Positions 1 to 34,406 of a stretch of DNA of 54,985 nucleotides are shown piece after piece (the first letter of the stretch is position 1; each line of letters starts with the position of its first letter). The notes beneath the pieces are model-generated. The model was not told the DNA's origin, searched no databases, and saw only the letters and a list, made by a program, of their open reading frames with translations. The DNA is from a virus (lineage: Duplodnaviria; Caudoviricetes): positions 1 through 54,985 of IMG/VR virus record IMGVR_UViG_3300031801_000852; one strand, 5' to 3'. Made by a program: the position numbers and the translations under genes.

Positions 1-185
1 GATCTATTAGTTTTAGATGTATCCCCTATTATACCATAGTTTTTATCATTGTCAACATATAAACTTCCATTGAGAGCATGATGGTTAATCTTCCCCCAAT
101 GGACTTTTGCGAATGGATTAATCTGGACTTCTCCATCATAATCTATGAATAACTGTGAAATATTTCGTGCTTCTTCTTTGTCCAT
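1..185 (-). CDS. hypothetical protein (partial, runs off the left edge)
   Basis: Manual translation MDKEEARNISQLFIDYDGEVQINPFAKVHWG... stays open to position 1; late-promoter-like CATAAATA at 190-197. Confidence 0.6.
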   Translation of the reverse strand, partial: MDKEEARNISQLFIDYDGEVQINPFAKVHWGKINHHALNGSLYVDNDKNYGIIGDTSKTNR

Positions 186-197
186 GAAATATTTATG

Positions 198-1127
198 CTA
201 TGGTAATTCCAACCATTGTTGAATTAATAGATTATATTTTGTTTCCTCATATGCACGTATCAAATTTGATTTTCCACCAATATTTTCAGCTCCCATATTA
301 TGGGTATACTTTTTCCATTCTATATTTTCAAATATTTTTCTAACAAAAGGTTGATATGCTTTAATAAGAAAGTGGGTAGTAGTATTTTCTTCAATTTCAT
401 TTAGTTCACATACTCCAATTTTTCCCCAATACTTAAGGCCGAAGTCCCAATATTCATTCTTTTTAATTTGTTTTCTTACCGATACTCTTTTCTTTACATT
501 ATCACAAGTGAGAAATAAATCAAAATCTTCATGGACAGTTTTTGGTCTTTCTAGTATTCTAAGGTTAGGTTCATGATTTCCTCTTTTCCAGAGTTGTTGA
601 CAACATTTAACATGATGTGGTTTTCCATTAAGTAAAAAACTATCTTTAGGTAAGTGTTCACTATAAACACATGAAAAATTTACATCCAATTGTCTATGAA
701 GTTTCCAACTAGAAGTCCATTTTAATGGTACGATAAAAGCAATATACTCACTAAACTTTGCTGCATGATTAAAAAACTTTACAGCCAAAGGATTTAAATA
801 TCCTCTACCAAAAGGTGGATTTCCAATCGTTAATATTTTCTTATAGTTTTTGTGAAATAAATTCTCTTCATCGTATGGTTCAAGACCAACAGGAAAATAA
901 TCAAAAAAATCCTGTTTAATAATACCATCACCTTCTGGAACCAAATCTATAGATACAGCATCCTCCGGTAAGCACTTTGATATATTACCACATCCAGCAG
1001 AAGGTTCAAGTATAATATCCATGTCATCAAATGATACATGTGATTTAATATTTTCAACAAACCTTTTAGAAATTTCTGGATGTGTATAAAATTTATCTAA
1101 ATCCCTACTAATATTTTCTTCCTTCAT
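198..1127 (-). CDS. N6-adenine DNA methyltransferase (gamma-type motif order), likely cognate MTase of the adjacent REase
   Basis: DKFYT, motif I ILEPSAGCG, motif IV IGNPPFG; ATGA overlap with the upstream nuclease. Confidence 0.85.
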   Translation of the reverse strand: MKEENISRDLDKFYTHPEISKRFVENIKSHVSFDDMDIILEPSAGCGNISKCLPEDAVSIDLVPEGDGIIKQDFFDYFPVGLEPYDEENLFHKNYKKILTIGNPPFGRGYLNPLAVKFFNHAAKFSEYIAFIVPLKWTSSWKLHRQLDVNFSCVYSEHLPKDSFLLNGKPHHVKCCQQLWKRGNHEPNLRILERPKTVHEDFDLFLTCDNVKKRVSVRKQIKKNEYWDFGLKYWGKIGVCELNEIEENTTTHFLIKAYQPFVRKIFENIEWKKYTHNMGAENIGGKSNLIRAYEETKYNLLIQQWLELP

Positions 1128-2898: not shown

Positions 2899-4335
2899 TT
2901 ATTGTGCTAAAAAACTCTCTAAAGGATTTCTTTGTTCATAATGTGACAAATACGATTCTTTAATTCGTTCTTTGTGATTCTTGAGGTAGATGGTATGACA
3001 ACCATCTTGGAAGGTTTTTTTGGGTCTAAACAAAAGTTCATTTGAAATCTTTCCGGCAAATGCTTTTCTCAACATCGGTTTCCACATCGGGCCGTCTTCT
3101 TTATATTTTGGTGGAATCCTCAAACAAAACTCGACCAAATCTTTGTGAAGAAATGGTGTCCTTAACTCAACAGTTCCACCATACATCATTGCTTTATTGG
3201 TACGTATTAAATTGTTTTTGTGGAGATTTACTACCAGCTTATAACGTTCTTTGATGTAGTCTTTGTCCTTATAGTTCCATGCAAATACATGACCATAAGA
3301 TGCAAACAATTCATCGCTCCCCTCTCCACCAAAAACAACTTTGAATCCTTCATCACGAATTCGTTTGGAAAGTGCTAATTGGGCAACCGCCGGAGAAACT
3401 TGTGTCCACGTATAATCTTCGACTGCATAGACCGCCTCACTCATATTGTCATTGACCCATTCCTCATCAATAATTACTTCATGAAGTGGAACACCTATTT
3501 CTTTACTTGCCATTCGGGCATAATACAAATCATCTTTCTTACCAGTATCACCGACACTCACTACAAAAGCCTGTAGGTCTGGAATTTGTTGTTTAAGTAG
3601 ATAAGTAACGATAGTTGAATCTACACCGCCAGACAAAATTGTACACACCGGCACATCTGAAATTAATTCATTGTGTACACCCTCAGTCAACAAATCTCTA
3701 ATACCATCGATTACTTCTTCTTCTTTCATGTCTTCAATATCTGTCATAGCAGGAAACTCGTAAAATTTTGTTTTCACTAGTTCCCCTGTCACATAATCAA
3801 ATTCATAGTAACAGCCAGGATCTACTAATACAACATCGGAGGCATTGATATTCAAGGATTTTGTAATTGTTTTTAATTCACTTGCAACTACAATTTGTTT
3901 TCCCTTCTTAAAAAAATATAAAGGAATTCTCCCTATGAAATCTCTAGCAAAAGTTAGTTTCTTTTTTTCTTCATCCAAGACTGCAAATCCAAACATACCA
4001 TCAAGATTTTTGATACAATCTTCTTGGTCTAAATGAAACATGTTCAATAACAATTCTGTATCACTTCCTGTATGTAAATCAAATTTAGATTTATGACTAT
4101 CCATACTTCGCCACAGTTCACCATTATAGACTAAAATATATGGCCATTTGAACATAGGTTGCTGTGATTCTTCAGTCAAACCCTGAATAGAAAGTCTGTT
4201 GTGTCCTAACCAAGTATCAGTTTCAATACTGTAGTTAATTCCTTTACTATCTGTACCACGATGATCTATAAGCTTTAAGGCATCGGTAAATTGTTTTTCA
4301 GATGTAAAAATATTCCCTATTACAAATCCACACAT
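2899..4335 (-). CDS. asnB: asparagine synthetase B-like glutamine amidotransferase
   Basis: N-terminal MCG (Ntn Cys), HNRLSI, YNGEL, PP-loop LSGGVDS, GEGSDELF, ELRTPFL. Confidence 0.9.
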   Translation of the reverse strand: MCGFVIGNIFTSEKQFTDALKLIDHRGTDSKGINYSIETDTWLGHNRLSIQGLTEESQQPMFKWPYILVYNGELWRSMDSHKSKFDLHTGSDTELLLNMFHLDQEDCIKNLDGMFGFAVLDEEKKKLTFARDFIGRIPLYFFKKGKQIVVASELKTITKSLNINASDVVLVDPGCYYEFDYVTGELVKTKFYEFPAMTDIEDMKEEEVIDGIRDLLTEGVHNELISDVPVCTILSGGVDSTIVTYLLKQQIPDLQAFVVSVGDTGKKDDLYYARMASKEIGVPLHEVIIDEEWVNDNMSEAVYAVEDYTWTQVSPAVAQLALSKRIRDEGFKVVFGGEGSDELFASYGHVFAWNYKDKDYIKERYKLVVNLHKNNLIRTNKAMMYGGTVELRTPFLHKDLVEFCLRIPPKYKEDGPMWKPMLRKAFAGKISNELLFRPKKTFQDGCHTIYLKNHKERIKESYLSHYEQRNPLESFLAQ

Positions 4336-5279
4336 TATTTTTTCCTAAAAAGAAACACGGGCTCATATTTAAAACTATCGGATTTTATATTCTTGCCAGG
4401 CATTTTTGATAAGGTAAGTTGAAACGTTTCCATATATTCAAATTCTTCAGATAGAACTATATTTGCACATTCACCTTCTAAATTATCAAATGAACTAACA
4501 TTAGCTATATTGATTGCCAAATAGCGTCTTGGTTTTAAGCCATATGCGCAGTTTTGTACTGTCTTACGTAAAAATCCCTCTAACCAATCTGCTTTATTAG
4601 GAAACTTTTTATAACTCTGGGTATCCTCATCAGAATATTTTTCTGTATCAAAGTATGGTGGTGAAGTGAAACATAAATCTAAAGATTCTTTTTCGGGGAC
4701 ATAATCTTCACTTCCACTTTGAACTATTTCTAAACGTTGAGTAGTTCCAAAAAGATTTGATTGATTGCCCCAATCCTTTGCAATTTGATTCAATCCATTA
4801 AATGTTTCTTTTGATGGTTCAGTAGCAATATAATTTATATGTGTTTTTATTGCACCTAACAATCTTCCACCATAACCTCCGGACATATCCCATGTAGTAC
4901 CACCATCAGGTAAAAACTTTTCATATATTGCTTGTGCGGCAGTTGGTCTAAAATTACTAACTCCTTGAGAGCCAGACATAACTTTCAAAACTTTTCTTAA
5001 ACCAGAGGGCGAGTCTACATGGCCAAGTTGTTTCATTTTCGTTTCGATTCTCCCCTTATCATTGAAAAAAGTTTGTAGAGGAGTATTCATGTTACCACAT
5101 TTAACATCAAAAGCATGAGGCATATAAGACCACAACAAAGCAAGACCGTGCATTGTTTGTTTTATTGTTTTACCATCCCACAAATTTCCTTGATACTGAA
5201 TAAATTTTTTGAATTCTTCTCTTCTCCAAACATTATCAGTAGGATAATATGGGAACTCTTCAGTCTCCAAACAACGCAT
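4335..5279 (-). CDS. SAM-dependent amino-DNA methyltransferase-like protein (SPPY family)
   Basis: NFRPTAA, DMSGGYGGRLLG, FTSPPYF. Confidence 0.8.
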   Translation of the reverse strand: MRCLETEEFPYYPTDNVWRREEFKKFIQYQGNLWDGKTIKQTMHGLALLWSYMPHAFDVKCGNMNTPLQTFFNDKGRIETKMKQLGHVDSPSGLRKVLKVMSGSQGVSNFRPTAAQAIYEKFLPDGGTTWDMSGGYGGRLLGAIKTHINYIATEPSKETFNGLNQIAKDWGNQSNLFGTTQRLEIVQSGSEDYVPEKESLDLCFTSPPYFDTEKYSDEDTQSYKKFPNKADWLEGFLRKTVQNCAYGLKPRRYLAINIANVSSFDNLEGECANIVLSEEFEYMETFQLTLSKMPGKNIKSDSFKYEPVFLFRKK

Positions 5280-6135
5280 TTGATTTTCTTTCCAAAACTA
5301 CTCTACTATTTCTAACAGGTGGCTCATACTTAGGATCATTCCTCAACAACCAATGAATTTCACCAAACACCATACTAAAGTATCGTTCATCATATTGTGT
5401 AATACCATATGCTTCCCACGCCTTATGTCCATGATACGTTACTTTTTTCGTTGCTACTAGCTCATCTCTTCCTTTAGGATCTAACATATCCATTTGAGCA
5501 TTTGTTATTCTACCATCATTCACAGCTTCAAGTAACGCCTCATTATCTATACAAGCAGGTCTTGATATAGAAATAATATTTCCACTAAATTTTTCTAACA
5601 ATGCTTTATCCAAAATTGGTGTATCTGTAGGTGATGAAGCAACAATTATTGTATCAAAACTCTCCATATATGGATAAATTGTATTGTAATCGGTTATGGA
5701 ATTCACTTCTGTTACATTATAATCAAAGGTATTAATAGCTTTACCAATTTTACCTGCTCCTAATAATAAAACGTTTGTACCTTTTTTCCATCGATCAATC
5801 CATTTTGCTACATTGAATGTATCTGGGTCTAGACAAACAACCCCTACTCTACGTTTCTCTGCTAATTCTAAATTGATATTATCCGATCCATGTGCTCTAC
5901 ATTGAATCCATTTTAGATTTGGATATGCATCAAATGTTTTTTGTCCTATCTTGGAAAACTTTACACTCAGTACTTCTGTTTCAAGATCACGTTCAATTTC
6001 ATCTTGAGAACCCATGATTTTATAATCTTCCCATTCAAGTTTATTATCTCTTATTTCATCCCACTCTTTAAAGTATGGTTCATAATGAAATAAATCATTC
6101 ATGTCTTTCTTGTCTTTTAATACAACCTTGCTCAC
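5260..6135 (-). CDS. D-isomer-specific 2-hydroxyacid dehydrogenase-like protein
   Basis: LKWIQCRAHGSDNI, Rossmann GAGKIG, ISRPACIDNEALLEA, His near the C-terminus. Confidence 0.75.
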   Translation of the reverse strand: MSKVVLKDKKDMNDLFHYEPYFKEWDEIRDNKLEWEDYKIMGSQDEIERDLETEVLSVKFSKIGQKTFDAYPNLKWIQCRAHGSDNINLELAEKRRVGVVCLDPDTFNVAKWIDRWKKGTNVLLLGAGKIGKAINTFDYNVTEVNSITDYNTIYPYMESFDTIIVASSPTDTPILDKALLEKFSGNIISISRPACIDNEALLEAVNDGRITNAQMDMLDPKGRDELVATKKVTYHGHKAWEAYGITQYDERYFSMVFGEIHWLLRNDPKYEPPVRNSRVVLERKSNALFGD

Positions 6136-6938
6136 CAGTTACCTCCTAGATTCCAAAATAAAATTTCACCTTCAAATTTTTGTATATTTTTTTCTAACCA
6201 ATACCACGCCTTCTTATCCCAAAATTCATTACAAGGAAATGGTGTTTCATACGATTCCATCATATCATCGAACTCAAATTCACTCTTGACTATTTCAATT
6301 TGTTCTGATGGTTGTATTTGATGCTTGAGAAATTTCTTTTTAATTGTGTCTTCACCAGATACATTTACTGTATGAAATGTTCTTGTGTTTCTTGGATCAA
6401 GCAAGGACGCCCATGGCTCATGTTCTAACATCAAACCTAAACAAGTAACACCAGAACCAGAAGAAACGACTAAATGATCAAAGTCTAATTCCTTCTTAAC
6501 TTCTCTTAATCTTTGTCTTTGCGTTGCTATATAGGCATCGTGATCAAACGCATACGGAAGTCTAATGTAATTCTTTTCCCTTGCTATCTGACCAACTTTG
6601 TTGTACATTACATTCATCATATTAGGTTTAATAGGAAGAACGTTTTCAGATTTTTCTAGGATATGTTGTGGGAATTTTTTGGAATCAGGATAGGCCATAA
6701 TAAATTCATAATCTAATTCTTTTGACACTTCAGCGAGTGCCCATCCAGACCACGAACCATAAACAGAAAGATGTATTAAAGGCTTTGATGGTTTTATAGT
6801 AGTCAGTACATTCTTGAGAGCAGTCAATTTACCCCACGGCGGATGTACTGTACCATCGCCCATTAAGTCATCACGTTTTACATGAACTTGTTTACCTTCT
6901 ACAGTATAAGTTTCAATTGGTGTAATTTCATTAATCAA
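6132..6938 (-). CDS. PLP-dependent fold-type II enzyme (ACC deaminase/D-cysteine desulfhydrase-like)
   Basis: VKRDDL...WGK (Schiff-base Lys position), SSGSGVT phosphate loop, C-terminal FWNLGG. Confidence 0.75.
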   Translation of the reverse strand: MINEITPIETYTVEGKQVHVKRDDLMGDGTVHPPWGKLTALKNVLTTIKPSKPLIHLSVYGSWSGWALAEVSKELDYEFIMAYPDSKKFPQHILEKSENVLPIKPNMMNVMYNKVGQIAREKNYIRLPYAFDHDAYIATQRQRLREVKKELDFDHLVVSSGSGVTCLGLMLEHEPWASLLDPRNTRTFHTVNVSGEDTIKKKFLKHQIQPSEQIEIVKSEFEFDDMMESYETPFPCNEFWDKKAWYWLEKNIQKFEGEILFWNLGGNW

Positions 6939-7434
6939 AGAACCCCGCTAATGACGCGTTACTAGTAGTAGTAGCTTGTTGTAACTGTCGTGTTCCGTTT
7001 TTCATGAAAAATCCATCTCTTGTACGTAGTCTTTCTTGCATTTCTTCGTATACTTCAGGATTATTTCTGAGTCGGAAAATTTCCAAACCTCTTTCTGATT
7101 GACCAGATTCAATAGTTTCTATAGTATGGCAATTCATACACAAAATCTTACACTTTCTAATCTCTTGAAATAATTCTCTTATGTATTGTCTATTTTTTTC
7201 TTTTTTAACATGAGCAATTCTTTTAACCAATCCATTCATTCCTGATCCACCCTTTCCCTGACCTACGCAATAATGATTCTTTTCTAAAGGATTTATATGA
7301 TCAAAAACTAATGCATAACCATTCTCATTATATCCACATATTTCACAACCTTTCGCACACTTGTATTTGTGAAGCCAATGAATTCTTCTGTCTTTTGTTC
7401 TTTTTCTTCTTGCGTTATTCTGAGGAGTACTCAT
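6931..7434 (-). CDS. HNH endonuclease-like protein
   Basis: CEICG...FDHINP...KCKILCMNCH. Confidence 0.75.
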   Translation of the reverse strand: MSTPQNNARRKRTKDRRIHWLHKYKCAKGCEICGYNENGYALVFDHINPLEKNHYCVGQGKGGSGMNGLVKRIAHVKKEKNRQYIRELFQEIRKCKILCMNCHTIETIESGQSERGLEIFRLRNNPEVYEEMQERLRTRDGFFMKNGTRQLQQATTTSNASLAGFFD

Positions 7435-8885
7435 TCGAAAAACCCATCTAATGTAGTTTTTTCTTTAGATGTTTCTGAGAACTTTTTCTTTTTGATTGGT
7501 TCTTGAACCACGGCCGGTCCCATACCCCCCAAAGTAGAATCTTTAAAAGGAGCAAATAAATCAACATCTTCTCCGCCAGGTTTTTGAAAACACCAAACAG
7601 ATTCGACAAACCACTTTGCTTGCCATTCATCGTATTTTGCTTTTCTTTCTTCATGTGTATCTCCCTCAAAAGATTTTATGCTTTTCGGGCGAGCCATAAT
7701 TCTCATTCCAATTTGCCCTTTGAAATATTCTTTAAGATCATTTACTAAATCATCACAAGACTTATGGCGTTTACCTTTGACTTTCGGGTCCATAATATTA
7801 ACCATTAACCATCCGCCTGGACTTAATTTATCAAATGCTTTTTTCATTACAGGAAGATAGAATCCATCTCTCCACTCTTCATAAGAATTATATCTACTCC
7901 ATGATTGATCACCTTCAAACTTACTACCCTCTGCATATCGTTCAGTAGCAAAGTATGGTGGAGAACTAAACATGATATCAATGTCATTAGGAATTTCATC
8001 CCACGGCAAGTCTTCAGCAGGCGATCTATAAATTTTTACTTTCTTTTTTCCTTCAACTGAAAACCAATTCTCACCAAATTCTGATTTAGGTTTTTCTTCT
8101 CCTAACCAATTTTCATACTGAACTGCCATCTTGTGATAATTTTCATGGAGATCACCATTCGGGTCCATTCCATAATATTCATCGGCATTAGAAGCAAAAA
8201 ATCCTGTCATACGATCACCCCAACCTGAACTTGTATCGAGTACTTTTTTAGATTTAGTAAAATCATAAAAAGCTTTAGCTACTGATGGTTTGAATTGTGT
8301 CGCAAAATATGCTCCAACTCGAACACCTTCAATGTACAAATTATTCTTGAGAGGCATTCCACAATCTGGATGAAGTCTCCATATCGGTGAAAGTATTTGT
8401 TTTAAATCTGTTTGATCATTCCACATTGTAATTGGACTTGGTGAACGATCATAACTACATTTCATTCGTTCACGATTCATGAACGCATCAGAAATGGTAT
8501 TAAAAATTGCACTAAAATTTAAAATTCCTATTCCCCATTCTGGAAAATTGCCAACATAGTCATCATATTTTTCATGGACTGTTTTACACTTTTCTTTTGG
8601 GAAAATATTATCTTTTAGATTGAGATTGCACAATTTATAAAAGCTTTGTCTAACTTCGTGCATATCAAATTCCCTGAATGGAAATTTGGGGTGGTGTTTT
8701 TCAAAGAAATGAATCAAAGTATCGATCATGACTTTCGCCCGTTTGGACATGGGCAAAGAAGTATCTGTATCGACATACTTCGTATTTAAGTTTTGCCAAG
8801 TAAATAAATCGAATACTGGCAACCCATATTCATTTACATTATCTTCATAAATTTTTAATAATTCTTCGTTCATTTGAATTCGCAA
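7431..8885 (-). CDS. SAM-dependent amino-DNA methyltransferase-like protein (SPPY family); true start probably 8873
   Basis: QFKPSVAK, LDTSSGWGDRMTG, FSSPPYF; ATG at 8873 overlaps the gp44 stop. Confidence 0.8.
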   Translation of the reverse strand: MRIQMNEELLKIYEDNVNEYGLPVFDLFTWQNLNTKYVDTDTSLPMSKRAKVMIDTLIHFFEKHHPKFPFREFDMHEVRQSFYKLCNLNLKDNIFPKEKCKTVHEKYDDYVGNFPEWGIGILNFSAIFNTISDAFMNRERMKCSYDRSPSPITMWNDQTDLKQILSPIWRLHPDCGMPLKNNLYIEGVRVGAYFATQFKPSVAKAFYDFTKSKKVLDTSSGWGDRMTGFFASNADEYYGMDPNGDLHENYHKMAVQYENWLGEEKPKSEFGENWFSVEGKKKVKIYRSPAEDLPWDEIPNDIDIMFSSPPYFATERYAEGSKFEGDQSWSRYNSYEEWRDGFYLPVMKKAFDKLSPGGWLMVNIMDPKVKGKRHKSCDDLVNDLKEYFKGQIGMRIMARPKSIKSFEGDTHEERKAKYDEWQAKWFVESVWCFQKPGGEDVDLFAPFKDSTLGGMGPAVVQEPIKKKKFSETSKEKTTLDGFFE

Positions 8886-9808
8886 TCTACCATCATCTCT
8901 GTGAGACAGGCGACTAGGTTAATTTCTTGGTCTGCGACAAACGCAGACTTGTATTGATATTCCGCAATAATAAGAACAGCTTGGGGGATTGAAGTATCCT
9001 TGAGATGTTCATGTATTCCATCATAAATCTTTCGAAAAATCCTTACCGGATCATTATCGACATTTTGAGTAACCCATTTACGTACTTCAGAAAAATGTTT
9101 TTCTTTTAATGCCCTCATCAATTCAAGAAGATTGATTTCACCAATCTGTGCCAAGATACCGGCATCGATAATTCCACCTGCTGCATATCTTTGAAGTTCG
9201 TTTATTACTCTCCTCATATCTGGAAAGTGTTTCAAAACTAATTCAACAAGAACCTTTTCATCAAACTTGATTCCCTTCTCTGTCAAAATTTCTTTGACTC
9301 TTACTAAACATTCTTGACCAAGTTTCGGTTTCTCTGCTCTTGGAATTACAAATTCTATTACAGAGCAACGTGAATGGATAGGATCAATGATCCGATTACG
9401 AAAATTACAAGTAAAGATAAAACTAACATTACTGCTAAATTTTTCAATGAACCCCCTTAGTGCTGGTTGAACCGATTCAGCATTCATGTAATCTGCCTCA
9501 TCGACTATGACAACTTTTCTTCCACCAGTCATTGAGACTGAACTACAATATTGCTGTAGAAGTGTTCTAACTGTATCTATATTTCTTCCCTCATTTGAAC
9601 CATTTATCATTAAATAATCCAAACCTATTTCATCACACATAGCACGAGCTATTGTGGTCTTACCTACACCGGCTCCACCAGACAAAAGTAAATTAGGAAT
9701 TTTACCATCATTAACAAAACCTTGAAAGACTTCTTTGGTTGGTTCTAATAGAACGCAGTCCGCCACTCTTTTAGGGCGAAACTCTTCTACCCATAAAAAG
9801 TTTTCCAT
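8870..9808 (-). CDS. gp44: clamp loader large subunit
   Basis: LWVEEFRP, Walker A GGAGVGKT, DEAD, SRC motif; adjacent to gp45. Confidence 0.95.
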   Translation of the reverse strand: MENFLWVEEFRPKRVADCVLLEPTKEVFQGFVNDGKIPNLLLSGGAGVGKTTIARAMCDEIGLDYLMINGSNEGRNIDTVRTLLQQYCSSVSMTGGRKVVIVDEADYMNAESVQPALRGFIEKFSSNVSFIFTCNFRNRIIDPIHSRCSVIEFVIPRAEKPKLGQECLVRVKEILTEKGIKFDEKVLVELVLKHFPDMRRVINELQRYAAGGIIDAGILAQIGEINLLELMRALKEKHFSEVRKWVTQNVDNDPVRIFRKIYDGIHEHLKDTSIPQAVLIIAEYQYKSAFVADQEINLVACLTEMMVDCEFK

Positions 9809-9810
9809 GA

Positions 9811-10479
9811 TTATCCGTTATAGTTTGAATTTTGTTCTGTTGCGATCCAATATTGTAATTTGGAATGTTCGTGTGCGAAATGTGCAATCCCTTTGGATGA
9901 AATTCCAACTTGGTATCCACCACTCAAAAGTTTCATGTTCTCAATTTTGAAAACCATTTGAAAATCTAATGTAGTAGTTCCAACTTCTCTTCGAAATTCA
10001 TCAGAAGAATTATTATTGGTATCAGTAGCTACCAAAAATATTTTACTTTCATCACCATGTACAACTAATTCTGGTAACGATAAAACTTGTGCCGCCTTCA
10101 GACAAGAATCGTATGCGTCTTTCGACATTTTGAAATTGATTTCCGGTTCAGGAAAATCAAGTTTTTTCTCTGGAGGTAAGACTAACATGGCTGGATCTCC
10201 ATAAACATAATCTAGTTCATATTCGTTACTACGAATATTCAATTTATTTTCACCAACATTTAATTCAGGAGACTTTTCAAAAAGACTAAGTGCACCTAAC
10301 AATTTGTTAAGATCATAGATAGCAAATGTGCTAGGAATGTCTTCACTAATTTCTGCACTTGTTAGAATATTTTTTTGAGGTGAAATTGTTGATAGTGATT
10401 TACCCTGTTTGAATTGTATGTTTTGATTTATTGTTGCGTAGTTTTTGAGTATCGCGAGTGTTTCTGCTGTTAACTTCAT
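9811..10479 (-). CDS. gp45: sliding clamp
   Basis: MKLTAETLAILKNYATINQNI, FAIYDLN, YWIATE. Confidence 0.95.
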   Translation of the reverse strand: MKLTAETLAILKNYATINQNIQFKQGKSLSTISPQKNILTSAEISEDIPSTFAIYDLNKLLGALSLFEKSPELNVGENKLNIRSNEYELDYVYGDPAMLVLPPEKKLDFPEPEINFKMSKDAYDSCLKAAQVLSLPELVVHGDESKIFLVATDTNNNSSDEFRREVGTTTLDFQMVFKIENMKLLSGGYQVGISSKGIAHFAHEHSKLQYWIATEQNSNYNG

Positions 10480-10516: not shown

Positions 10517-10544
10517 ATTATATCATGTATTGTTGATTTGTCAA
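10517..10544 (-). promoter_or_regulatory. sigma70-type promoter for the gp45-gp44-modification operon
   Basis: TTGACA-16 nt-TATAAT with extended TG. Confidence 0.7.
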
Positions 10545-13607: not shown

Positions 13608-14888
13608 TTAATCTTCATAATCGGAATTTTCTTCATCCAAAAGTCTGTGAGCTTCTTCAGCTTCAGTTTCATCGAGATCAACTCCGGCATCAATCTTGGA
13701 ATACAAATCCAAGAAAGAAGTTTTCGTATCTTCATCAAAACGATTCACACACATTTCGATTGATTTCATTCTATCACCGAAAATTGCGAATGCGTTTGAA
13801 ATATGAACCAATCGGCGAGTTGCGATTACTTCATCGATTCCACCATCGTAAAAAGTCTTACGAATGGCGTTTGCCCAATTCACCAACTTCTCTGCGAAAT
13901 CAGAATCAGGAACTCCAAGAGAATCAAGAACTTTGTTCACGATTTTCTTTTCGGTTTGGGCTGAAGGATAATTAACTTCCATTGTGATAGGAAATCTTTC
14001 AAGGAAAGCTTCGTTCAAGATATTGGTAAAAACAAATCTACCATCTTCAGAACCTTTTCCTTTAGTATTGGCGGTTGCGACAACCGAAAATCCCTCGGCT
14101 GGTGTAACCATTCTGTTTATCTTTTTCAAATAAACACCTTTACCCTCAAGTATAGGTTGTAGACACATCACTTTGTTGGATGCCAAGTCAATCTCATCAA
14201 GGAGAAGAACTGCACCACGTTCCATTGCGATGACCACAGGACCATCCTGCCAAACTGTATTACCATCAACCAATGCGTAGTGACCCAAAAGATCATCTTC
14301 ATCAGTTTCAACAGTAATGTTAACCCTGATAAATTCTCTCTTGAGTTTTGCACAGGCTTGTTCGGTCATATAAGTTTTACCAGTTCCAGATTCACCAGTT
14401 TCAAATACTGGATAAAATTTTCTAGAACTCAAAACCTTAATCAAATCACTAAAATGTCCGTGAGCCACGAACAAAGGATCTTTTTTAGGAATCAATTCTG
14501 CTGGATTAAAATATGTACTCATATCTAAAGTATCACTCTCTACTTTTTTTGTTTTCACAGGAGCCGGATCTACCGGACGATCTGGTTGTACTACCGGAGC
14601 AGGAACCACATCTGCGACTGATGCACCTTCTCCACCATTTAATGCAGGAAGACGATAAGTATCTTTACTAACCTTAGTAAAGGCACCCATTCGCCGTGCG
14701 TCAGTCAACCAAAATGGGAATTTCAACCCATTCTCTTCTGCTATTTCAGTAATAGTTTTCTTTGCTAATACTGCGCCTTCGCCATATTTGACGATTGCCG
14801 CTGAAAGAAACTTTAACTGTTTTTCAGTATATGTCATTTTCACATCTCTCATAATGTATGTTTTATTTGATGAAGAACGTTTCTTCAT
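13608..14888 (-). CDS. cobS: CobS-like MoxR AAA+ ATPase (start may be ~14837)
   Basis: Walker A GESGTGKT, LLDEID, ATANTKGKGSEDGRF, NEAFLERF. Confidence 0.9.
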   Translation of the reverse strand: MKKRSSSNKTYIMRDVKMTYTEKQLKFLSAAIVKYGEGAVLAKKTITEIAEENGLKFPFWLTDARRMGAFTKVSKDTYRLPALNGGEGASVADVVPAPVVQPDRPVDPAPVKTKKVESDTLDMSTYFNPAELIPKKDPLFVAHGHFSDLIKVLSSRKFYPVFETGESGTGKTYMTEQACAKLKREFIRVNITVETDEDDLLGHYALVDGNTVWQDGPVVIAMERGAVLLLDEIDLASNKVMCLQPILEGKGVYLKKINRMVTPAEGFSVVATANTKGKGSEDGRFVFTNILNEAFLERFPITMEVNYPSAQTEKKIVNKVLDSLGVPDSDFAEKLVNWANAIRKTFYDGGIDEVIATRRLVHISNAFAIFGDRMKSIEMCVNRFDEDTKTSFLDLYSKIDAGVDLDETEAEEAHRLLDEENSDYED

Positions 14889-14899
14889 CTTCAGGTACC

Positions 14900-14947
14900 A
14901 TTATACAGTAAATTGGTCAGGAAGTCAAGTGTTTATACAAACTTTTT
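14900..14947 (-). promoter_or_regulatory. sigma70-type early promoter, repeat copy 2
   Basis: TTGACT-17 nt-TATAAT; 33 bp identical to copies 1 and 3. Confidence 0.85.
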
Positions 14948-14957
14948 TCACTTTTTT

Positions 14958-17276
14958 TCATGCCGCTACCATATTAATGAATCTTGACAAAAGTTTTCTC
15001 TTCTCAAGTTTTCCGGAAGAAAACTTCTTAAAGGCTTTCGCCATTTGTGCTACAGTTGCATCTTCTGCAACTTCTAAAGTAGTCTCTTCAACTTCCAAAC
15101 TTTTTCCACCTTGAACCAAATATTGTTCATTAAATCCCATCATTTCAGGGGCGATCATATATTTGTTTTTACGCCATTCTTTCATTGCATTGTGTACTTC
15201 TTCCCATTCTGGAATAGTATCTGTTTCACCTCTAGACTTTCTTTGCTTATCAAGATGATGTTGCATTTCATACTTTTTCATTCTATCAATCAAGAAAAAG
15301 TTAACAATATTAATATTAAAAACATCTCTTTGAAATCTAACCAAAGCTTCTGTGAAAGATGACGCTTGCCGAAAATCATGTTTTGAGTCAACTAACATTG
15401 TTTTTTTAGAAACTGGATCTCGTAAAATCACATTTTGCTTTCTTACATCAAAATGTTCAACGTTTGTACCATTCTCAGTCCAATAGTTATTTGAGGAATG
15501 AGAATCACCATCAGTAAGAAAAATACTATTAATAACATCAACTTGATTCTTCTTTTGAAATTCTCTCATTATTGAAAATGATACCAACAGAGTTGAATTC
15601 AAAGGCGTTCCACCAAGATTCATTCTATCTGGAATATTGAAATATACTCCTTCTCCATAATAACGATAGGCGTTAGAATAATAACTTGCTGTTGCTGTCA
15701 TAAAAATATATGCCTCATGAAGTTCTTTTGCTCTCATCCTTGAAGAAAACAAGTTCAAAAGATTGAAACGATTAATAACCACATCTCCGTAATCTGGAGT
15801 TTTAGTTGACAATATATGTCCATTACTGTCAGTCCAATCTATATCATCTTTGTATCTTGTATAGGAATCACTAAAGGCATAGACTTCAAAAGGAATGTTC
15901 ACTCTCTTACAGAACATAACCAAAATCATCAACTGGTCAATAGTCCCTTTCATATTTTTTGACATTGAACCAGACCAATCGACAAACATCACTAATCCAT
16001 GATTTTTTCCATCAGGAGTAATAGACAATTTCTTAAAAATATGTTCATTATATTTGTATGTATAGAGCCTTTCAGAATCAAGAATTCCAGAATTGGCGGT
16101 TGCTGTTCTTGCATGTTCTTTTGCCGCTTTCTTCATTTCAAATTCTTTTGCGAGGTATTCAACAATTTTTTTATTCTTGTTACGAAAATCTTTGAACAAT
16201 TTTGTTGCTGCATCCAACATCTCTACACCGGTTATCTCATTACTATATCTTGGTTCAGTACTACTTGAATACATTTCACGATATTCCTCATATACATCTG
16301 AAAAATTAACAACAACATTTTTCATATCGATCTTGGTAGGAAGATTCAAATATACATAATCTTTTGCTTCTTCTGATACTAATTCAATTTCATTATTTCG
16401 AAAGTTGCTATCAGTTTTTGATTCAGGCTCAAACCTTCCATCCATACCGCCTTCTTCTCCAGACCCACCGGCTTTTCCTTCTTCAGTTTCATCTTCATCT
16501 TCTTCAGAAGATTCTTCACTCCCTGCACGTTTTTCCTTTGAATCATCTTCGCCATCTTCGCCATCTTCACCGGCACCATCTCCAGATTCACCTTCTTCGC
16601 TATCTTCATTAGAATTTTCAAAATCACTAGGATCATAATTTTCATTCCAATCTTCATCTTCATCCACCATTACATCTTCCCATTCATGGTCACTCATATC
16701 GGTTTCAGATTCATTTTCTTTTGCATACTCATAAAGATCTTCACAAATCTTGACAACTTCTTTCCAAGTTTGGGCTTTATCAATTCTATCAATAAAGACT
16801 GATTCTTCTCCAGAAAATGAAATATTCAAATGACTACCTACTTTATAGTGAAGATTAATTCTATCAATCAATCCCAAACCGGCCACTTCTTCCTTTTTAA
16901 TACCGAAAAAATCACGCTTCATCAAATCGTTATAACCATTGACAAATGACCTTCGACCACCAGGATATTTAATTTTAATTTTTCTCTCAATTCGTGCATC
17001 TTCAACTACATTAAGAAAGGATTTGAATCCTTTTCCATGATCTTTTGCATCATGTAATCCCTCTTCAGGAGTGAATAATGCGTGTCCAACTTCGTGTAGT
17101 ACCAGTAAATCATAAAGACTCCCGTTCATCTCTTTCCAAATTGGAAGACGGAGAACGCGATTCTTTGTGTCAAATGATGCTGTATTAAATTTACCATGTT
17201 CAACAGTCAAGTTTTCTGAAGCGAGAAGTTTCGCTAGAATTGACTTTGATTCTTTATTGGCTAATTTCATTTCCAT
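14958..17276 (-). CDS. CobT-like protein (N-terminal HExxH domain, acidic linker, vWA domain)
   Basis: HEVGHAL, NVVEDARIE, MIDAS DWSGSM, GGTPL, LTDGD; adjacent to the MoxR ATPase. Confidence 0.85.
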   Translation of the reverse strand: MEMKLANKESKSILAKLLASENLTVEHGKFNTASFDTKNRVLRLPIWKEMNGSLYDLLVLHEVGHALFTPEEGLHDAKDHGKGFKSFLNVVEDARIERKIKIKYPGGRRSFVNGYNDLMKRDFFGIKKEEVAGLGLIDRINLHYKVGSHLNISFSGEESVFIDRIDKAQTWKEVVKICEDLYEYAKENESETDMSDHEWEDVMVDEDEDWNENYDPSDFENSNEDSEEGESGDGAGEDGEDGEDDSKEKRAGSEESSEEDEDETEEGKAGGSGEEGGMDGRFEPESKTDSNFRNNEIELVSEEAKDYVYLNLPTKIDMKNVVVNFSDVYEEYREMYSSSTEPRYSNEITGVEMLDAATKLFKDFRNKNKKIVEYLAKEFEMKKAAKEHARTATANSGILDSERLYTYKYNEHIFKKLSITPDGKNHGLVMFVDWSGSMSKNMKGTIDQLMILVMFCKRVNIPFEVYAFSDSYTRYKDDIDWTDSNGHILSTKTPDYGDVVINRFNLLNLFSSRMRAKELHEAYIFMTATASYYSNAYRYYGEGVYFNIPDRMNLGGTPLNSTLLVSFSIMREFQKKNQVDVINSIFLTDGDSHSSNNYWTENGTNVEHFDVRKQNVILRDPVSKKTMLVDSKHDFRQASSFTEALVRFQRDVFNINIVNFFLIDRMKKYEMQHHLDKQRKSRGETDTIPEWEEVHNAMKEWRKNKYMIAPEMMGFNEQYLVQGGKSLEVEETTLEVAEDATVAQMAKAFKKFSSGKLEKRKLLSRFINMVAA

Positions 17277-18165: not shown

Positions 18166-19350
18166 TTATACAAAAAATTTATTGAGGGGGGAAGTGTCAT
18201 CTATTATTTGATCCAATGTTCTGCTATCTCCTTTTTTCCATACCCACATTGGTTCAATAATCTGTTTTCCTTTTGATTCTGGTTTATCATTATTACTGCC
18301 TGGTCTACGATTTAATTTTAATCCGATACATCCAGTATATTTAGATTGTGGAAGTGATTGTATAAAATCATTCATGGGATCACAAATCTTTACATAAGTT
18401 TTATTATTTCCTTTATCGTTTGCATACACATCAGCAATATTGATAATCATCGTTCCATCATCTTTTAAGGAACTCCAACATTTTTCTAAAGTTGGAAACA
18501 AGAAATTTCCTAACCAATCATCAATATCTTTTCCATATCGTTTCCAAGATTGGGTTTCATCATCTGCATATCTTTCTACATGAAAATATGGTGGAGAAGT
18601 ATACACCATATCAAATTTTCTCTTGCTAAGATCTACATCTTCTGCCGGAGCTTTTATAAATTCTGTTTTCTTGTAAGTCTCATAAAGCTCATTTTGTCTT
18701 GGATAATTATCAAACACCTCTTGGTTAGGATCAATGCCTGTATAACTTTCTGCATTAGAGGCGTGAAATCCAGCGAGTCTATCACCCCACCCCATAGAAA
18801 AATCTAAAACATCTTTTGCTTCAAATAAATTATAAAGTGATTTTGCTACTGCTGGTGGATATTGAGCTGCCATATACATTCTCATTTGAATGGCTAATCT
18901 CATTTGTTTATTATTTACCTCTGGCATATCTAATGTCCATAGAGGATTCAAAAATGTTTGATGGAATTTTTTAATCGTCCAAGAACGATAGGGGCTTGTA
19001 TGTCTGGCGTGCTGTACTTTCCATCTTGCGAATTGATGAAAGTAATTAGATGATTTTCTTCCTACATTACTATTTTTTATATACCAATGTGATAAATCAT
19101 ATTTGTAATCTGCTTTAGAATAAAGACTATCTTTGGTCAATAAAGTTCTTGCATCAAACTTCGCTAACTCATAAAAGTCTTGTTTAGCTTCTTCTTCAGT
19201 AATATCAACAAGAGGTAAATCTAACCCCTCAATAGCATCTGAGATTGCATCTTTTAATTCTTGTATAGTATAGATATTTTTTAATTGATGCCAATGAGGT
19301 TTGTCGATGATCAATTCACCATTCACTACAAACGATTTCAAATTTAACAT
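18166..19350 (-). CDS. SAM-dependent amino-DNA methyltransferase-like protein (SPPY family)
   Basis: QYPPAVAK, LDFSMGWGDRLAG, YTSPPYF. Confidence 0.8.
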   Translation of the reverse strand: MLNLKSFVVNGELIIDKPHWHQLKNIYTIQELKDAISDAIEGLDLPLVDITEEEAKQDFYELAKFDARTLLTKDSLYSKADYKYDLSHWYIKNSNVGRKSSNYFHQFARWKVQHARHTSPYRSWTIKKFHQTFLNPLWTLDMPEVNNKQMRLAIQMRMYMAAQYPPAVAKSLYNLFEAKDVLDFSMGWGDRLAGFHASNAESYTGIDPNQEVFDNYPRQNELYETYKKTEFIKAPAEDVDLSKRKFDMVYTSPPYFHVERYADDETQSWKRYGKDIDDWLGNFLFPTLEKCWSSLKDDGTMIINIADVYANDKGNNKTYVKICDPMNDFIQSLPQSKYTGCIGLKLNRRPGSNNDKPESKGKQIIEPMWVWKKGDSRTLDQIIDDTSPLNKFFV

Positions 19351-32726: not shown

Positions 32727-33796
32727 ACTGTCTCCACAGTCAATGCTTCATTATATAGATTTCTCATCAATATATTTAATTCTGTTTTATTTTCTATATT
32801 TAATGAATCAACATATTTACTTAAAATGGTTAATGTGTCTTGAGCCTCATCGATTATCTCATCATCTTCCATGAATTCCAAATCCGAAAAATTCTCAACT
32901 ACTACTAGATTTGCAACATTTACTGAATATAACTTATCTAGTACAGTATCAAACCAAAAAGGATTTGTTTTCTTTTGTACTACTACTTTTACATAGGTGT
33001 TTTCATATTCACTATAATCTCTTTCAGTTAATGTTTCAAAAGACTCATTACTGTCATCATAGTAAAATTTTCTAAACATTCTATAGGGGTTTTGTATGTG
33101 TTTTAACTCTCTTGTCTCTGTATCGAAGATGTGGAACCCCCTGGGGTCTTTATAATCACTCCATGTTATTTCATAGGGATTTCCTAAGTAGTAAATTGTA
33201 CCATCATCTGACTTGTGGTGAAAATGTCCACTCATAGCCATATCAAATTTATCAAAAATCTTCGCTTCTACACCTTCATGACTCCATGATCCAATATGCT
33301 GTTCAAATCCTCTAACTTCTAAATGTCCCATAAGAATCTGACATTGAGTATTTTTAATTGCTTTCATACATTCACCATAATTATCTTCATTTATCCACGG
33401 CATCATGAGAATTCCTAGTCCATCAAAGCCTACTTCCTTTGGAGAAGAATACATCCACGGCTCTACTTTTCCTTCATGAGTCGTAAAAATTTCTTGGAGA
33501 GAATTTAGTTCGTTAGTATTTTTGTGGAAGGTATCGTGATTACCGATAATTATGTGAGTATCTATCCCCATTTTCCATAGGCGTTCAACAAAATTTGTTC
33601 GTAGATCGTTCAGTATTTTGAAGTTAATGAATTTTCTACGATCCACCACATCACCTAAATGGATGAGGGTTTTGATATTGTGTTTTTCTAGGTAAGGGAA
33701 AAATACATTATCATAAAATTTTCGGAAATAGTTCATGAAGGTGAGACTATCGCCCCTTGCGCCCCAATGAGTGTCCGTTATAAGGGCTATCTTCAT
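32723..33796 (-). CDS. gp47: recombination endonuclease nuclease subunit (Mre11/SbcD-like)
   Basis: TDTHWG, LGDVVD, GNHD, GHFH. Confidence 0.95.
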   Translation of the reverse strand: MKIALITDTHWGARGDSLTFMNYFRKFYDNVFFPYLEKHNIKTLIHLGDVVDRRKFINFKILNDLRTNFVERLWKMGIDTHIIIGNHDTFHKNTNELNSLQEIFTTHEGKVEPWMYSSPKEVGFDGLGILMMPWINEDNYGECMKAIKNTQCQILMGHLEVRGFEQHIGSWSHEGVEAKIFDKFDMAMSGHFHHKSDDGTIYYLGNPYEITWSDYKDPRGFHIFDTETRELKHIQNPYRMFRKFYYDDSNESFETLTERDYSEYENTYVKVVVQKKTNPFWFDTVLDKLYSVNVANLVVVENFSDLEFMEDDEIIDEAQDTLTILSKYVDSLNIENKTELNILMRNLYNEALTVETV

Positions 33797-34371
33797 GCTG
33801 TGGAGCTCATAAATAATTCTAAATTAGATTCTTTTTTCTTAACTACTGCCTTTTTCTTCTTACTCTTTTCAAAAGTGTCTACAAATTCATCTACTACTAT
33901 TCTAAAATCTGAATTTTTATAATCTCCAATTGGATTAGGTACATCATTAGTTTTATCGATATCCATATACCCAGGTATCGTATCATAGTTTTGCATGCTT
34001 TTATATTTTATATATAATTGTTTTTTCTCTTTTTGTATTCTTCGAATAAAAGCATAATAAATTATTTGAGTAAAATATGCAAACGGATTGTTTGATTTTT
34101 CTGGATTAAAATTATGAATATAGTGTAGACAATTTTCTATACCATCAGATATCATGTCATTTTTAAATGCATAATTTATAAAGTTGGGCCTAAAAGATAA
34201 TCTTTGGGCTATTTTCAAAAATACAGATCCTAAATATTCTGAAATTTGTGGAAGTTCCTTTTCATTTTTCTTTGCGTCATCATATTCACTTTTATATTGG
34301 ATCATTGCTTCTAAAAATACGGAGTTATCCACATAATGGGCTTTATTACCCTTATTTTTTCTTCTGGCCAT
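33793..34371 (-). CDS. gp55: late-transcription sigma factor
   Basis: HYVDN, PNFINY, DMISDGIENC, NPFAYFTQIIYYAFIRRIQKEKKQ. Confidence 0.95.
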   Translation of the reverse strand: MARRKNKGNKAHYVDNSVFLEAMIQYKSEYDDAKKNEKELPQISEYLGSVFLKIAQRLSFRPNFINYAFKNDMISDGIENCLHYIHNFNPEKSNNPFAYFTQIIYYAFIRRIQKEKKQLYIKYKSMQNYDTIPGYMDIDKTNDVPNPIGDYKNSDFRIVVDEFVDTFEKSKKKKAVVKKKESNLELFMSSTA

Positions 34372-34406
34372 AATATTATCCCTTTTAAAGTTAATGTCGT
34401 ACACTC

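Follow-up and report, generated by a model that had tools for sequence, protein, structure and literature searches.

Why should a phage place genes for a methyltransferase-like (MT-like) protein, a pyridoxal 5'-phosphate (PLP) enzyme, a dehydrogenase (DH) and a relative of the asparagine synthase AsnB directly behind those for its sliding clamp gp45 and clamp loader subunit gp44? The question is raised by a 54,985-base viral contig (hereafter the window, meaning the whole stretch of DNA that was analysed), which is the entire record of IMGVR_UViG_3300031801_000852 and has a completeness of ~30% by a CheckV-type estimate. An earlier note on this DNA had read these genes as a stepwise base modification pathway as opposed to unrelated metabolic genes, and that claim is now supported by the co-occurrence of the genes in other viral contigs, by the homology of the PLP enzyme to gp52 of Pseudomonas phage M6, and by a DNA polymerase tail motif on the first MT-like and the AsnB-like protein. 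The window thus probably carries a post-replicative DNA base hypermodification cassette inside the replication operon of a pelagimyophage-like marine T4-type phage.

A replication operon with six overlapping genes

The capsid protein of the window finds its best matches in Pelagibacter phage HTVC008M (66%), Methylophilales phage Melnitz (64%) and Pelagibacter phage Mosig (62%), and since its major capsid protein is closest to those phages we assign the contig to an uncultured marine T4-type myophage of the pelagimyophage kind; with a capsid nearest to those of SAR11 and OM43 myophages, its hosts are likely abundant marine heterotrophs. All sizeable family-assigned open reading frames (ORFs) in the first 14 kb lie on the minus strand, on which a promoter is followed in order by gp45 (9811-10479; phrog_223, 5e-67; Pfam gp45-slide_C), gp44, the clamp loader large subunit (8870-9808; phrog_168, 1e-115; Pfam Gp44_lid and AAA), a first MT-like gene (MT1, 7431-8873), an HNH endonuclease gene (6931-7434), the PLP gene (6132-6938), DH (5260-6135), a second MT-like gene (MT2, 4335-5279) and the AsnB-like gene (2899-4335). 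Read from the sequence, gp44/MT1 and MT1/HNH are joined by ATGA, HNH/PLP by an 8-nt overlap with a TTG start, PLP/DH by GTGA, DH/MT2 by a 20-nt overlap and MT2/AsnB by TAATG. ORF coordinates, strand and every junction thereby verify the claim of the earlier note that six overlapping genes are coupled directly to the clamp loader gene, and gp45, gp44 and the six genes form one unit behind a sigma-70-type promoter. Short gene overlaps are frequent in phage genomes and are weak evidence when taken alone.

The promoter (TTGACA-16-TG-TATAAT, 12/12, a consensus match only) lies upstream of gp45 at 10517-10544 on the minus strand and likely starts the transcription unit. The total number of promoter-like sites in the region was not above shuffled expectation, the T4 late-promoter motif TATAAATA was not enriched (5 matches versus 8.2 expected), and a terminator scan returned nothing convincing near the cassette. 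A 134.5-kb relative with a CheckV completeness of 100% (G001) carries gp45, gp44, MT1, the PLP enzyme, DH, MT2, the AsnB-like enzyme, an oxygenase and the gp43 DNA polymerase, and since this gene order places the module between gp44 and gp43, the module lies inside the replication gene cluster.

Co-occurrence of the cassette genes in viral contigs

Scanning IMG/VR with an alignment of the PLP enzyme yielded at least 145 confirmed stretches. The best 80 were retained, and the 62 loci that were new to the analysis have 35-74% identity to the PLP protein of the window. Counted by phmmer across these 62 loci, some of which come from related phages or represent overlapping pieces of a single contig, DH is present at 36, the AsnB-like gene at 34, an MT2-like gene at 29, a gene like the third paralogue MT3 (see below) at 21 and MT1 at 7. 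Gene order varies by lineage, with MT1-PLP-DH-AsnB, gp44-MT1-x-AsnB-PLP, oxygenase-PLP-x-DH-MT2, MT3-x-AsnB-PLP and AsnB-DH-PLP-MT3 all being found. Where at least 4 kb were available on both sides of the PLP gene, an MT-family gene was found at 33 of 34 loci and an AsnB or DH gene likewise at 33 of 34; every one of the 12 PLP clusters formed at 60% identity has an MT-family neighbour, and among the partners of the PLP enzyme only the MT-like proteins are universal. The expectation in the earlier note that the gene neighbourhood would be conserved therefore holds, as PLP, MT-like, DH and AsnB-like genes co-occur in 12 PLP clusters of viral contigs, and the fact that they do so in shuffled orders argues for functional linkage. 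Together these data support a conserved, phage-restricted module of genes for MT-like proteins with an SPPY motif, the PLP enzyme, DH, the AsnB-like enzyme and an AspH-like oxygenase.

We also looked for enzymes that could install an amino-acid-type group. Homologues of the M6 gp51 transferase, the gp53 radical SAM enzyme or the gp54 kinase were found at 0 of the 62 loci by single-sequence searches, which very distant forms could escape, and neither the window nor G001 contains a homologue of the 5-hydroxymethyldeoxyuridine kinase or of the amino-acid:DNA transferase. CmoA (TIGR00740) has no match in the window or G001, and G001 likewise has none for the ThyA family, M6 gp51 or gp54; its ThyX gene lies far from the cassette. 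Because G001 is without ThyA-family, gp51, gp54 and CmoA genes, none of the known ways of attaching amino acids or carboxymethyl groups to phage DNA seems to be present. A 5-hydroxymethyl-pyrimidine route was considered for the window lineage and rejected, since the ThyA-family, kinase and transferase genes are absent from this complete relative.

The PLP enzyme is a relative of M6 gp52

The fold-type II PLP enzyme (268 aa) matches phrog_7093 (7.2e-24 over residues 1-265) and is homologous over residues 1-265 of 268 to gp52 of phage M6 (tblastn, E 1e-18, 26% identity). Its predicted PLP lysine, K37, aligns with K36 of gp52, which has been proposed as the PLP lysine of that enzyme (PMC8989533), and a lysine occupies this position in at least 90% of 23 family members. 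Purified gp52 of M6 and its homologue gp226 of phage ViI act as decarboxylases on amino acids already borne by thymine in DNA (PMC8989533). Matches to known families beyond these are faint: the Pfam PALP score is 19.5 bits, below the cut-off of 35, there is no NCBIfam match, and PDB sequence searches with the PLP enzyme, MT1 and MT2 gave no usable match.

The structural model of the PLP enzyme (predicted local distance difference test, pLDDT, 95.2) superposes by Foldseek on the D-Cys desulfhydrase structures 4d9e and 4d92 with template modelling (TM) scores of 0.75-0.76 (E 8e-12) and on 1j0a with 0.73, homologues of D-Cys desulfhydrase and 1-aminocyclopropane-1-carboxylate (ACC) deaminase being the best matches, followed by threonine deaminases. 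The ACC deaminase/D-Cys desulfhydrase fold that had been assigned from the sequence is thus borne out by superposition (TM 0.73-0.76). The proposed activity as a deaminase fares less evenly: the fold is that of a deaminase or desulfhydrase, but the closest characterised relative, gp52, is a decarboxylase.

When the PLP alignment was searched against 185,579 species genomes, only 7 weak relatives (21-26% identity) were found, which indicates a virus-specific family and not a recently borrowed metabolic gene. Among cultured phages, homologues of the PLP enzyme occur only in M6-like and Bordetella phages. The data support the view that the PLP enzyme belongs to the M6 gp52 family acting on DNA-attached amino acids.

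Polymerase-type tails on the cassette enzymes

The C-termini of the cassette proteins offer a second line of evidence. The MT1 sequence closes with TLDGFFE, preceded by a 30-residue segment for which disorder is predicted; the tails of its orthologues read (S/T)L(A/E)GFFD, and members at 42-47% identity end in TLEEFF, SLEDFF or SLDDFL. AsnB-like proteins carry NPLE(S/N)F(L/F) (PLESFLAQ in the window) or, in the next lineage, SLE(K/E)FM, and DH proteins N(A/S)LFGD (NALFGD in the window), SFFED or DFFDF. DNA polymerases from the same locus sets end in (S/T)LE.FF, and within G001 alone the tails are SSLDNFFI for the polymerase, SSLEGFFD for MT1, NPLESFFG for the AsnB-like enzyme and NALFGD for DH. 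MT1 and the AsnB-like enzyme therefore share the C-terminal tail motif of the DNA polymerase, and the tail of DH is similar to it. The hydrophobic-acidic C-termini of T4 gp43, gp55 and gp33 are gp45-binding elements (PMC2988020), and gp55 of the window, the late sigma factor (33793-34404, minus strand; phrog_234, 7e-56), has NLELFM in its C-terminal segment near the end, providing an internal reference for a clamp-binding tail. We presume from this resemblance that the (S/T)LExFF motif is a gp45-clamp-binding tail.

The motif is concentrated at protein ends. Of 2,276 non-overlapping ORFs from all retrieved loci, a partly redundant set, 143 show the pattern [STNP]L[EDA].F[FLMW] within their final 9 residues (82 MT1-family proteins, 37 DNA polymerases, 20 AsnB-like proteins, 1 HNH protein and 3 others), as compared with 2 of 59,855 internal 9-mers. 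Within the window, a looser motif marks 5 of 76 ORF ends (MT1, HNH, AsnB, MT3 and gp55) versus 1 of 1,868 internal 9-mers. The HNH tail, SLAGFFD, is the displaced original tail of MT1 and, being a duplicated copy, is not counted as independent evidence. A polymerase tail on an amidotransferase, with a similar one on DH, is hard to explain unless these enzymes work at replicating DNA, and our literature search found no report of base-modifying enzymes with a T4-type clamp tail.

We also modelled the gp45 trimer together with AsnB residues 432-478. The predicted complex scored 0.34 (runs of 0.59, 0.33 and 0.34, agreeing in at least 48% of contacts, with a partner pLDDT of at least 39), the best of 3 controls reaching 0.00. 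Of 80 solved complexes, 58 attained the mark applied to this score, as did 2 of 110 mismatched pairs, and passing scores of 0.60 or less came from only 7 of the 80 solved complexes and from both of the mismatches; the pass may moreover reflect memory, because a clamp-peptide complex of a related phage is solved. It is the sequence pattern, not the complex score, that counts as evidence for clamp tails.

Other endings were observed in the cassettes of large phages (L142-L168, contigs up to 290 kb), where the AsnB-like protein ends in GIYKWI, the PLP enzyme gains GGIYKF, DH ends in NVWF and the DNA polymerase in KFFxF. These tails may be a docking motif particular to this lineage, directed at a PCNA-like clamp whose gene lies nearby.

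The methyltransferase-like proteins

MT1 (480 aa) is a class I S-adenosylmethionine (SAM)-fold protein of the SPPY methyltransferase-like type, with VLDTSSGWGDR as motif I and FSSPPYF as motif IV. We place its start at the ATG at 8873, which gives the length of most listed homologues; the TTG at 8885 was rejected as a start. MT2 (314 aa; phrog_12517, 6e-19; FTSPPYF) is a paralogue, and a third one, MT3 (394 aa; 18166-19350, minus strand), has the motif YTSPPYF and the tail SPLNKFFV; by BLASTP, MT3 matches MT1 at 5e-44, and MT2 matches MT3 at 1e-24 and MT1 at 1e-15. The SPPY motif is invariant in 74 MT1-family sequences. Against the Pfam family N6_N4_Mtase (PF01555, cut-off 26.7 bits), MT1 scores 28.6 bits over only profile positions 1-83 of 221, MT3 32.1 bits over positions 2-67, and MT2 21.2 bits, under the cut-off.

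In the AlphaFold2 model of MT1 (pLDDT 88.3), residues 453-484 are disordered and the remainder superposes on class I methyltransferases, with catechol O-methyltransferases on top (Z 14.8). Both Foldseek and VIA-align returned only generic class I methyltransferases, which do not separate methyl transfer from 3-amino-3-carboxypropyl (ACP) transfer for MT1, and barely covered residues 1-75. The structural matches include tRNA and rRNA amino-methyltransferases (Z 13.5-14.1), namely TrmN (14.1), Trm11 (13.8) and METTL5 (13.5), which would suit a cassette that modifies RNA (tRNA or rRNA) or protein instead of DNA, as would the fact that ACP transfer is known so far on RNA, proteins and small molecules (for MccD, see PMC11350588). 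We hold such a target to be very improbable, given the tail motif common to the cassette and the DNA polymerase, the position of the cassette between gp44 and gp43 in the replication operon, and the homology of the PLP enzyme to a DNA-acting enzyme.

MT1-family proteins are numerous, with 1,910 found at E ≤ 0.001 among 4,224 candidates. A scan of IMG/VR with the MT1 alignment gave 571 confirmed stretches, and at 37 of the 71 loci examined MT1 lies directly after the B-family DNA polymerase, ahead of UvsX and a helicase. Eleven related contigs span both DH and AsnB; MT2 lies between the two genes in 6 of them and is absent from the other 5. The second methyltransferase that had been listed as an operon member is accordingly a real gene of the window but is dispensable in relatives.

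One variant cassette (L084:9004-12887) runs in order from MT1 through an AspH-like oxygenase and a gp52-like PLP enzyme to a 228-aa canonical N6_N4 methyltransferase, which also bears the tail motif (NTLDEFMT). Short ORFs related to the AspH-like oxygenase (143-192 aa) overlap the end of MT1 in phages without PLP, DH or AsnB genes (L051, L065, L085, L087 and L093).

Dehydrogenase, AsnB-like enzyme and oxygenase

DH (291 aa) resembles D-2-hydroxyacid dehydrogenases, a group of NAD(P) oxidoreductases, and scores above cut-off for Pfam 2-Hacid_dh (31.6 versus 24.6 bits) and 2-Hacid_dh_C (30.3 versus 25.1 bits), with matches to glyoxylate reductases in the PDB down to 6e-6. It has the nucleotide-binding motif GAGKIG, and G.G, S..R, D and H are invariant in 14 diverse homologues.

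The AsnB-like enzyme (478 aa; Pfam Asn_synthase, 1.5e-52, and GATase_7) joins a glutamine amidotransferase to an adenylating domain. The window protein retains Cys2 (MCGF), HNRL, NGE, SGGVDS and GEGSDE, and all 13 of 13 diverse cassette AsnBs likewise keep Cys2, HNRL, NGE, SGGxDS and GE-G-(S/A)-DE. The Arg of the TTxR motif is missing from all 13, which read WTQ(V/I)(S/A)P or TVQ(M/V/Q)(E/Q)V instead; the TTIR of E. coli AsnB aligns with TQVS of the window, and the alignment stops at E. coli residue 466 of 553, the window protein being ~85 residues shorter at the C-terminus. Thr-Thr-x-Arg and Cys523 have been named as aspartate/ATP-binding residues of AsnB (PMC5775275), and the enzyme fails the AsnB equivalog NF006949 (283.9 versus a cut-off of 499). 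The most economical reading is that it still makes ammonia and adenylates a carboxylate, which would not be that of free aspartate. There is precedent for such a substrate in CmoY of phage S-B43, an AsnB-like ligase acting on 5-carboxymethylcytosine in DNA (PMC12783734). In one cassette (L170:8094-9014) the AsnB-like synthetase domain stands alone (306 aa, no glutaminase domain) between ThyA-like and PLP genes, in a region with an MT3-like gene on either side.

The earlier note had drawn the unit too small, as an AspH-like 2-oxoglutarate/Fe(II) oxygenase gene, cut by the left end of the contig, probably belongs to it. The first 61 codons of this gene (3-185, minus strand) are identical at 61 of 61 positions to the start of L018:15007-16107, which encodes 366 aa and matches Pfam Asp_Arg_Hydrox at 2e-10. 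An AspH-like oxygenase gene stands directly after AsnB in two related loci (L115 and L117), and a related oxygenase gene directly precedes the PLP gene in 20 loci; the oxygenase is thus likely a cassette member.

An oxygenase and an AsnB-like ligase could also serve a carboxymethyl route, in which an SPPY enzyme would use host carboxy-SAM to form an N-carboxymethyl group, the AsnB-like enzyme would convert it to carbamoylmethyl and the oxygenase would hydroxylate its CH2, in parallel with CmoX and CmoY. The usual target of AsnB- and AspH-type enzymes is a -CH2-C(=O)- unit, and carbamoylmethyl is the group of the phage Mu Mom modification. In the CmoA/CmoX/CmoY system, moreover, an AsnB-like ligase acts on 5-carboxymethylcytosine in DNA, and a second cluster of CmoY-type ligases has a glutaminase domain (PMC12783734). 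We nevertheless consider this route quite unlikely: CmoA is missing from both the window and the complete relative G001, the MT-like proteins are of the SPPY amino type and not of the SPPC C5 type that defines CmoX, and neither the PLP enzyme, as a universal partner, nor DH would have a role in it.

A candidate pathway and the points that bear on it

For the base hypermodification that we favour, the following course can be proposed. The C-terminal tails would dock the enzymes on the gp45 sliding clamp, so that new DNA would be modified behind the fork. An MT-like enzyme, with MT1 as the candidate, would install a starting group on an exocyclic amino nitrogen of a base, the SPPY motif suggesting cytosine N4 as the attachment site. 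PLP enzymes need a primary amine adjoining a carboxylate, and to our knowledge a class I SAM enzyme can supply both only by ACP transfer; the starting group would come from SAM and would most coherently be ACP, as in the pathway of MccD and MccE. The AspH-like oxygenase would then hydroxylate the beta carbon of the side chain, and the fold-II PLP enzyme would eliminate water and ammonia to leave a 2-oxo acid or, alternatively, decarboxylate as gp52 does. Reduction of the 2-oxo acid by DH would give a 2-hydroxy acid, the AsnB-like enzyme would amidate the carboxylate with glutamine-derived ammonia, and a methyl group may further come from MT2. A beta-carbon leaving group is required by fold-II lyases, threonine deaminase and D-Cys desulfhydrase among them, and because of this the AspH-like oxygenase makes the chain of deamination, reduction and amidation coherent. 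Variants in other phages fit as shorter chains, for instance oxygenase-PLP-DH without AsnB. The ACP route specifically is a tentative proposal; that SPPY enzymes of marine T4-type and jumbo phages put the ACP group of SAM on an exocyclic nitrogen of cytosine or adenine in freshly replicated DNA, with clamp-docked tailoring to a hydroxy-amide side chain, is likewise possible but doubtful.

Several points weigh against this account. Modified base, donor and product are each inferred. The main internal weakness is that the characterised relatives of the PLP enzyme are decarboxylases: an ACP adduct would then keep no carboxylate for the AsnB-like enzyme, whose role is unexplained if the PLP enzyme decarboxylates. 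Nothing in the fold matches of the MT1 model points to ACP transfer. DH has no conserved Glu at the expected place in the 14 homologues, where we take the positions of the Arg-Glu-His triad of 2-hydroxyacid dehydrogenases to apply, and its tail differs in a divergent DH-PLP lineage (L016/L017 type), reading ERV(T/M)F. The modelled binding of gp45 to AsnB gives weak support. Locus counts do not represent independent events, because many loci come from related phages, and the cassette is found in no cultured phage, with no close homologue of MT1, DH or AsnB there.

In cassettes without DH (L118, L142, L170 and 18 others), the place between the MT gene and AsnB is instead taken by a divergent, short ThyA-like gene (~235 aa), and ThyA-like and DH genes exclude each other at the 62 loci (both, 0; ThyA-like only, 21; DH only, 36; neither, 5). 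There may accordingly be at least two cassette types, of which the ThyA type may work on a 5-substituted pyrimidine.

A further alternative is that the SPPY proteins are ordinary N4-cytosine or N6-adenine methyltransferases that protect the genome, with the PLP, DH, AsnB-like and oxygenase genes being separate from them, either as auxiliary metabolic genes for free amino and oxo acids or as tailoring enzymes for an adduct from another installer. MT1 could be such a DNA N-methyltransferase because MT1-family genes are common without the module: PLP-type genes were found at only 3 of the 71 loci of the MT1 scan (L038, L073 and L084). SPPY and motif I are canonical for amino-methyltransferases, and the MT1 fold matches are generic methyltransferases. 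The AsnB-like enzyme matches E. coli AsnB (PDB 1ct9) at 8e-47 and passes TIGR01536, 'asparagine synthase (glutamine-hydrolyzing)', with 282.4 versus a cut-off of 267.1, and DH and the PLP enzyme resemble enzymes of free metabolites (glyoxylate reductases and D-Cys desulfhydrase, respectively). Set against this are the MT-family neighbour of the PLP gene at 33 of 34 well-flanked loci and in 12 of 12 clusters, the near absence of the PLP subfamily from cellular genomes (7 weak matches), the missing aspartate-binding determinants of the AsnB-like enzyme, its polymerase tail motif and the similar tail of DH, and the fact that searches of the 62 loci, the window and G001 found no other installer. 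On balance we regard ordinary methyltransferases as unlikely to account for the cassette.

Were the ACP-based pathway true, it would provide the first ACP-derived DNA base and the first N-linked amino-acid-type hypermodification, as well as the first whole modification pathway to use the replication clamp as a toolbelt. The polymerase-type tails suggest a general phage way of coupling base modification to replication, and the components are widespread, with 1,910 MT1-family proteins at the threshold given above and the PLP type in at least 145 IMG/VR stretches. New DNA-modifying enzymes would be useful for DNA labelling and for understanding how phages evade restriction and CRISPR defences. 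We see a good chance of a new modified base and of a new principle, the clamp-tethered modification pathway; the literature searched contained no description of the module or of an ACP-type phage DNA modification, with the exception of the supplements of PMC8989533 and PMC12783734, in which metagenomic or AsnB-like sequence clusters overlapping the cassette may be listed and to which the search did not extend.

A mobile HNH gene and other neighbours

The HNH gene (6931-7434, minus strand; phrog_2255/3106) encodes a homing endonuclease. Comparison with the closest relative (L018) by blastn reveals an insertion of 478 bp at about 6957-7434, with ~22 bp from the 3' end of MT1 duplicated at its flanks, and no HNH homologue was found in the 36 related loci first fetched; a single one occurs in another locus (L077), at a different position. 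Its absence from 36 related loci and the insertion with a duplicated flank identify HNH as a homing-endonuclease insertion, so that its inclusion in the modification operon by the earlier note does not stand, and it was rejected as a pathway member. Across the insertion region (6931-7456), MT1 and the HNH ORF both end in a clamp-type tail, and the overlap at the PLP start is retained.

Between AsnB and the oxygenase lies a gene for a 309-aa NPPF methyltransferase-like protein (198-1127, minus strand; phrog_5172, 1e-42, and phrog_799; motifs EPSAGCGN and NPPF; no Pfam or NCBIfam match), which overlaps an endonuclease-like gene (1124-1765; phrog_1111). Among the related loci, tblastn matched this pair only to the L003/L018 contig; it may represent a mobile pair of methylase and nuclease or else belong to the pathway. 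A second 12/12 sigma-70 promoter with a TG extension is present at 28-55 on the minus strand, within the 5' part of the AspH-like gene. On the other side of the operon, 13608-17276 encodes two proteins that many marine myophages also have, a CobS-like AAA ATPase (phrog_249) and a phrog_459 protein of 772 aa.

Comparison with known systems

The tails of the cassette proteins resemble those of T4 gp43, gp55 and gp33 in being short hydrophobic-acidic motifs at the extreme C-terminus after a flexible linker, and the DNA polymerases of these marine phages show the identical pattern. Unlike in T4, the motif is here borne by an MT-like enzyme and an amidotransferase, with a similar one on DH, and clamp binding is presumed from it.

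In microcin C biosynthesis, the SAM-dependent ACP-transferase MccD and the PLP decarboxylase MccE make an aminopropyl group (PMC11350588), so that there, too, a PLP enzyme acts on an amino-acid moiety that a class I SAM-fold enzyme has transferred beforehand. The substrate of that system is a peptide-nucleotide and not DNA, and MccE is of a different PLP fold group. The MccD structure 5fcd comes 23rd in the Foldseek ranking for MT1, where dozens of ordinary methyltransferases match at least as well, and the likeness is an analogy, not evidence of membership.

The CmoA/CmoX/CmoY system of Synechococcus phage S-B43 shares with the cassette its marine origin and a presumed logic in which an MT-like enzyme attaches a handle from a SAM analogue before an ATP-dependent AsnB-like enzyme converts the carboxylate to an amide. 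Closeness to S-B43 itself was not detectable by tblastn, whose matches to 17 phage records did not include that phage. The cassette differs from it in having no CmoA, in the SPPY amino-type motif as opposed to an SPPC C5-type motif with a carboxylate-binding Arg, and in the additional PLP, DH and oxygenase genes. Unlike CmoY, the AsnB-like enzyme keeps its glutaminase domain, and the nucleophile would therefore be ammonia, not glycine.

Thymidine hypermodification in M6 and ViI employs the 5-HMUDK kinase, the aGPT-Pplase2 amino-acid:DNA transferase, a radical SAM isomerase and the PLP decarboxylase gp52/gp226. The PLP enzyme of the cassette is homologous to the last of these over its full length, with the PLP lysine aligned, and in both cases a DNA-borne amino-acid-like group would be tailored after replication; uncharacterised amidoligase and glutaminotransferase genes have, moreover, been noted in metagenomic hypermodification clusters (PMC8989533). 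In contrast to M6 and ViI, kinase, transferase and radical SAM homologues are absent from all 62 loci, G001 has neither kinase nor transferase nor a ThyA-family hydroxymethylase, and the universal partner is an SPPY methyltransferase-like protein, the identity to gp52 being only 26%. DH and the AspH-like oxygenase represent tailoring classes that the cited parts of PMC8989533 do not report for M6 or ViI. The known phage hypermodifications with appended amino acids that this comparison covers start from 5-hydroxymethyl pyrimidines or carboxymethylcytosine. Since the cassette has neither of these starting points and combines a gp52-type PLP enzyme with an amino-type MT-like protein, the chemistry of attachment is expected to differ, and the modified base is probably a new one.

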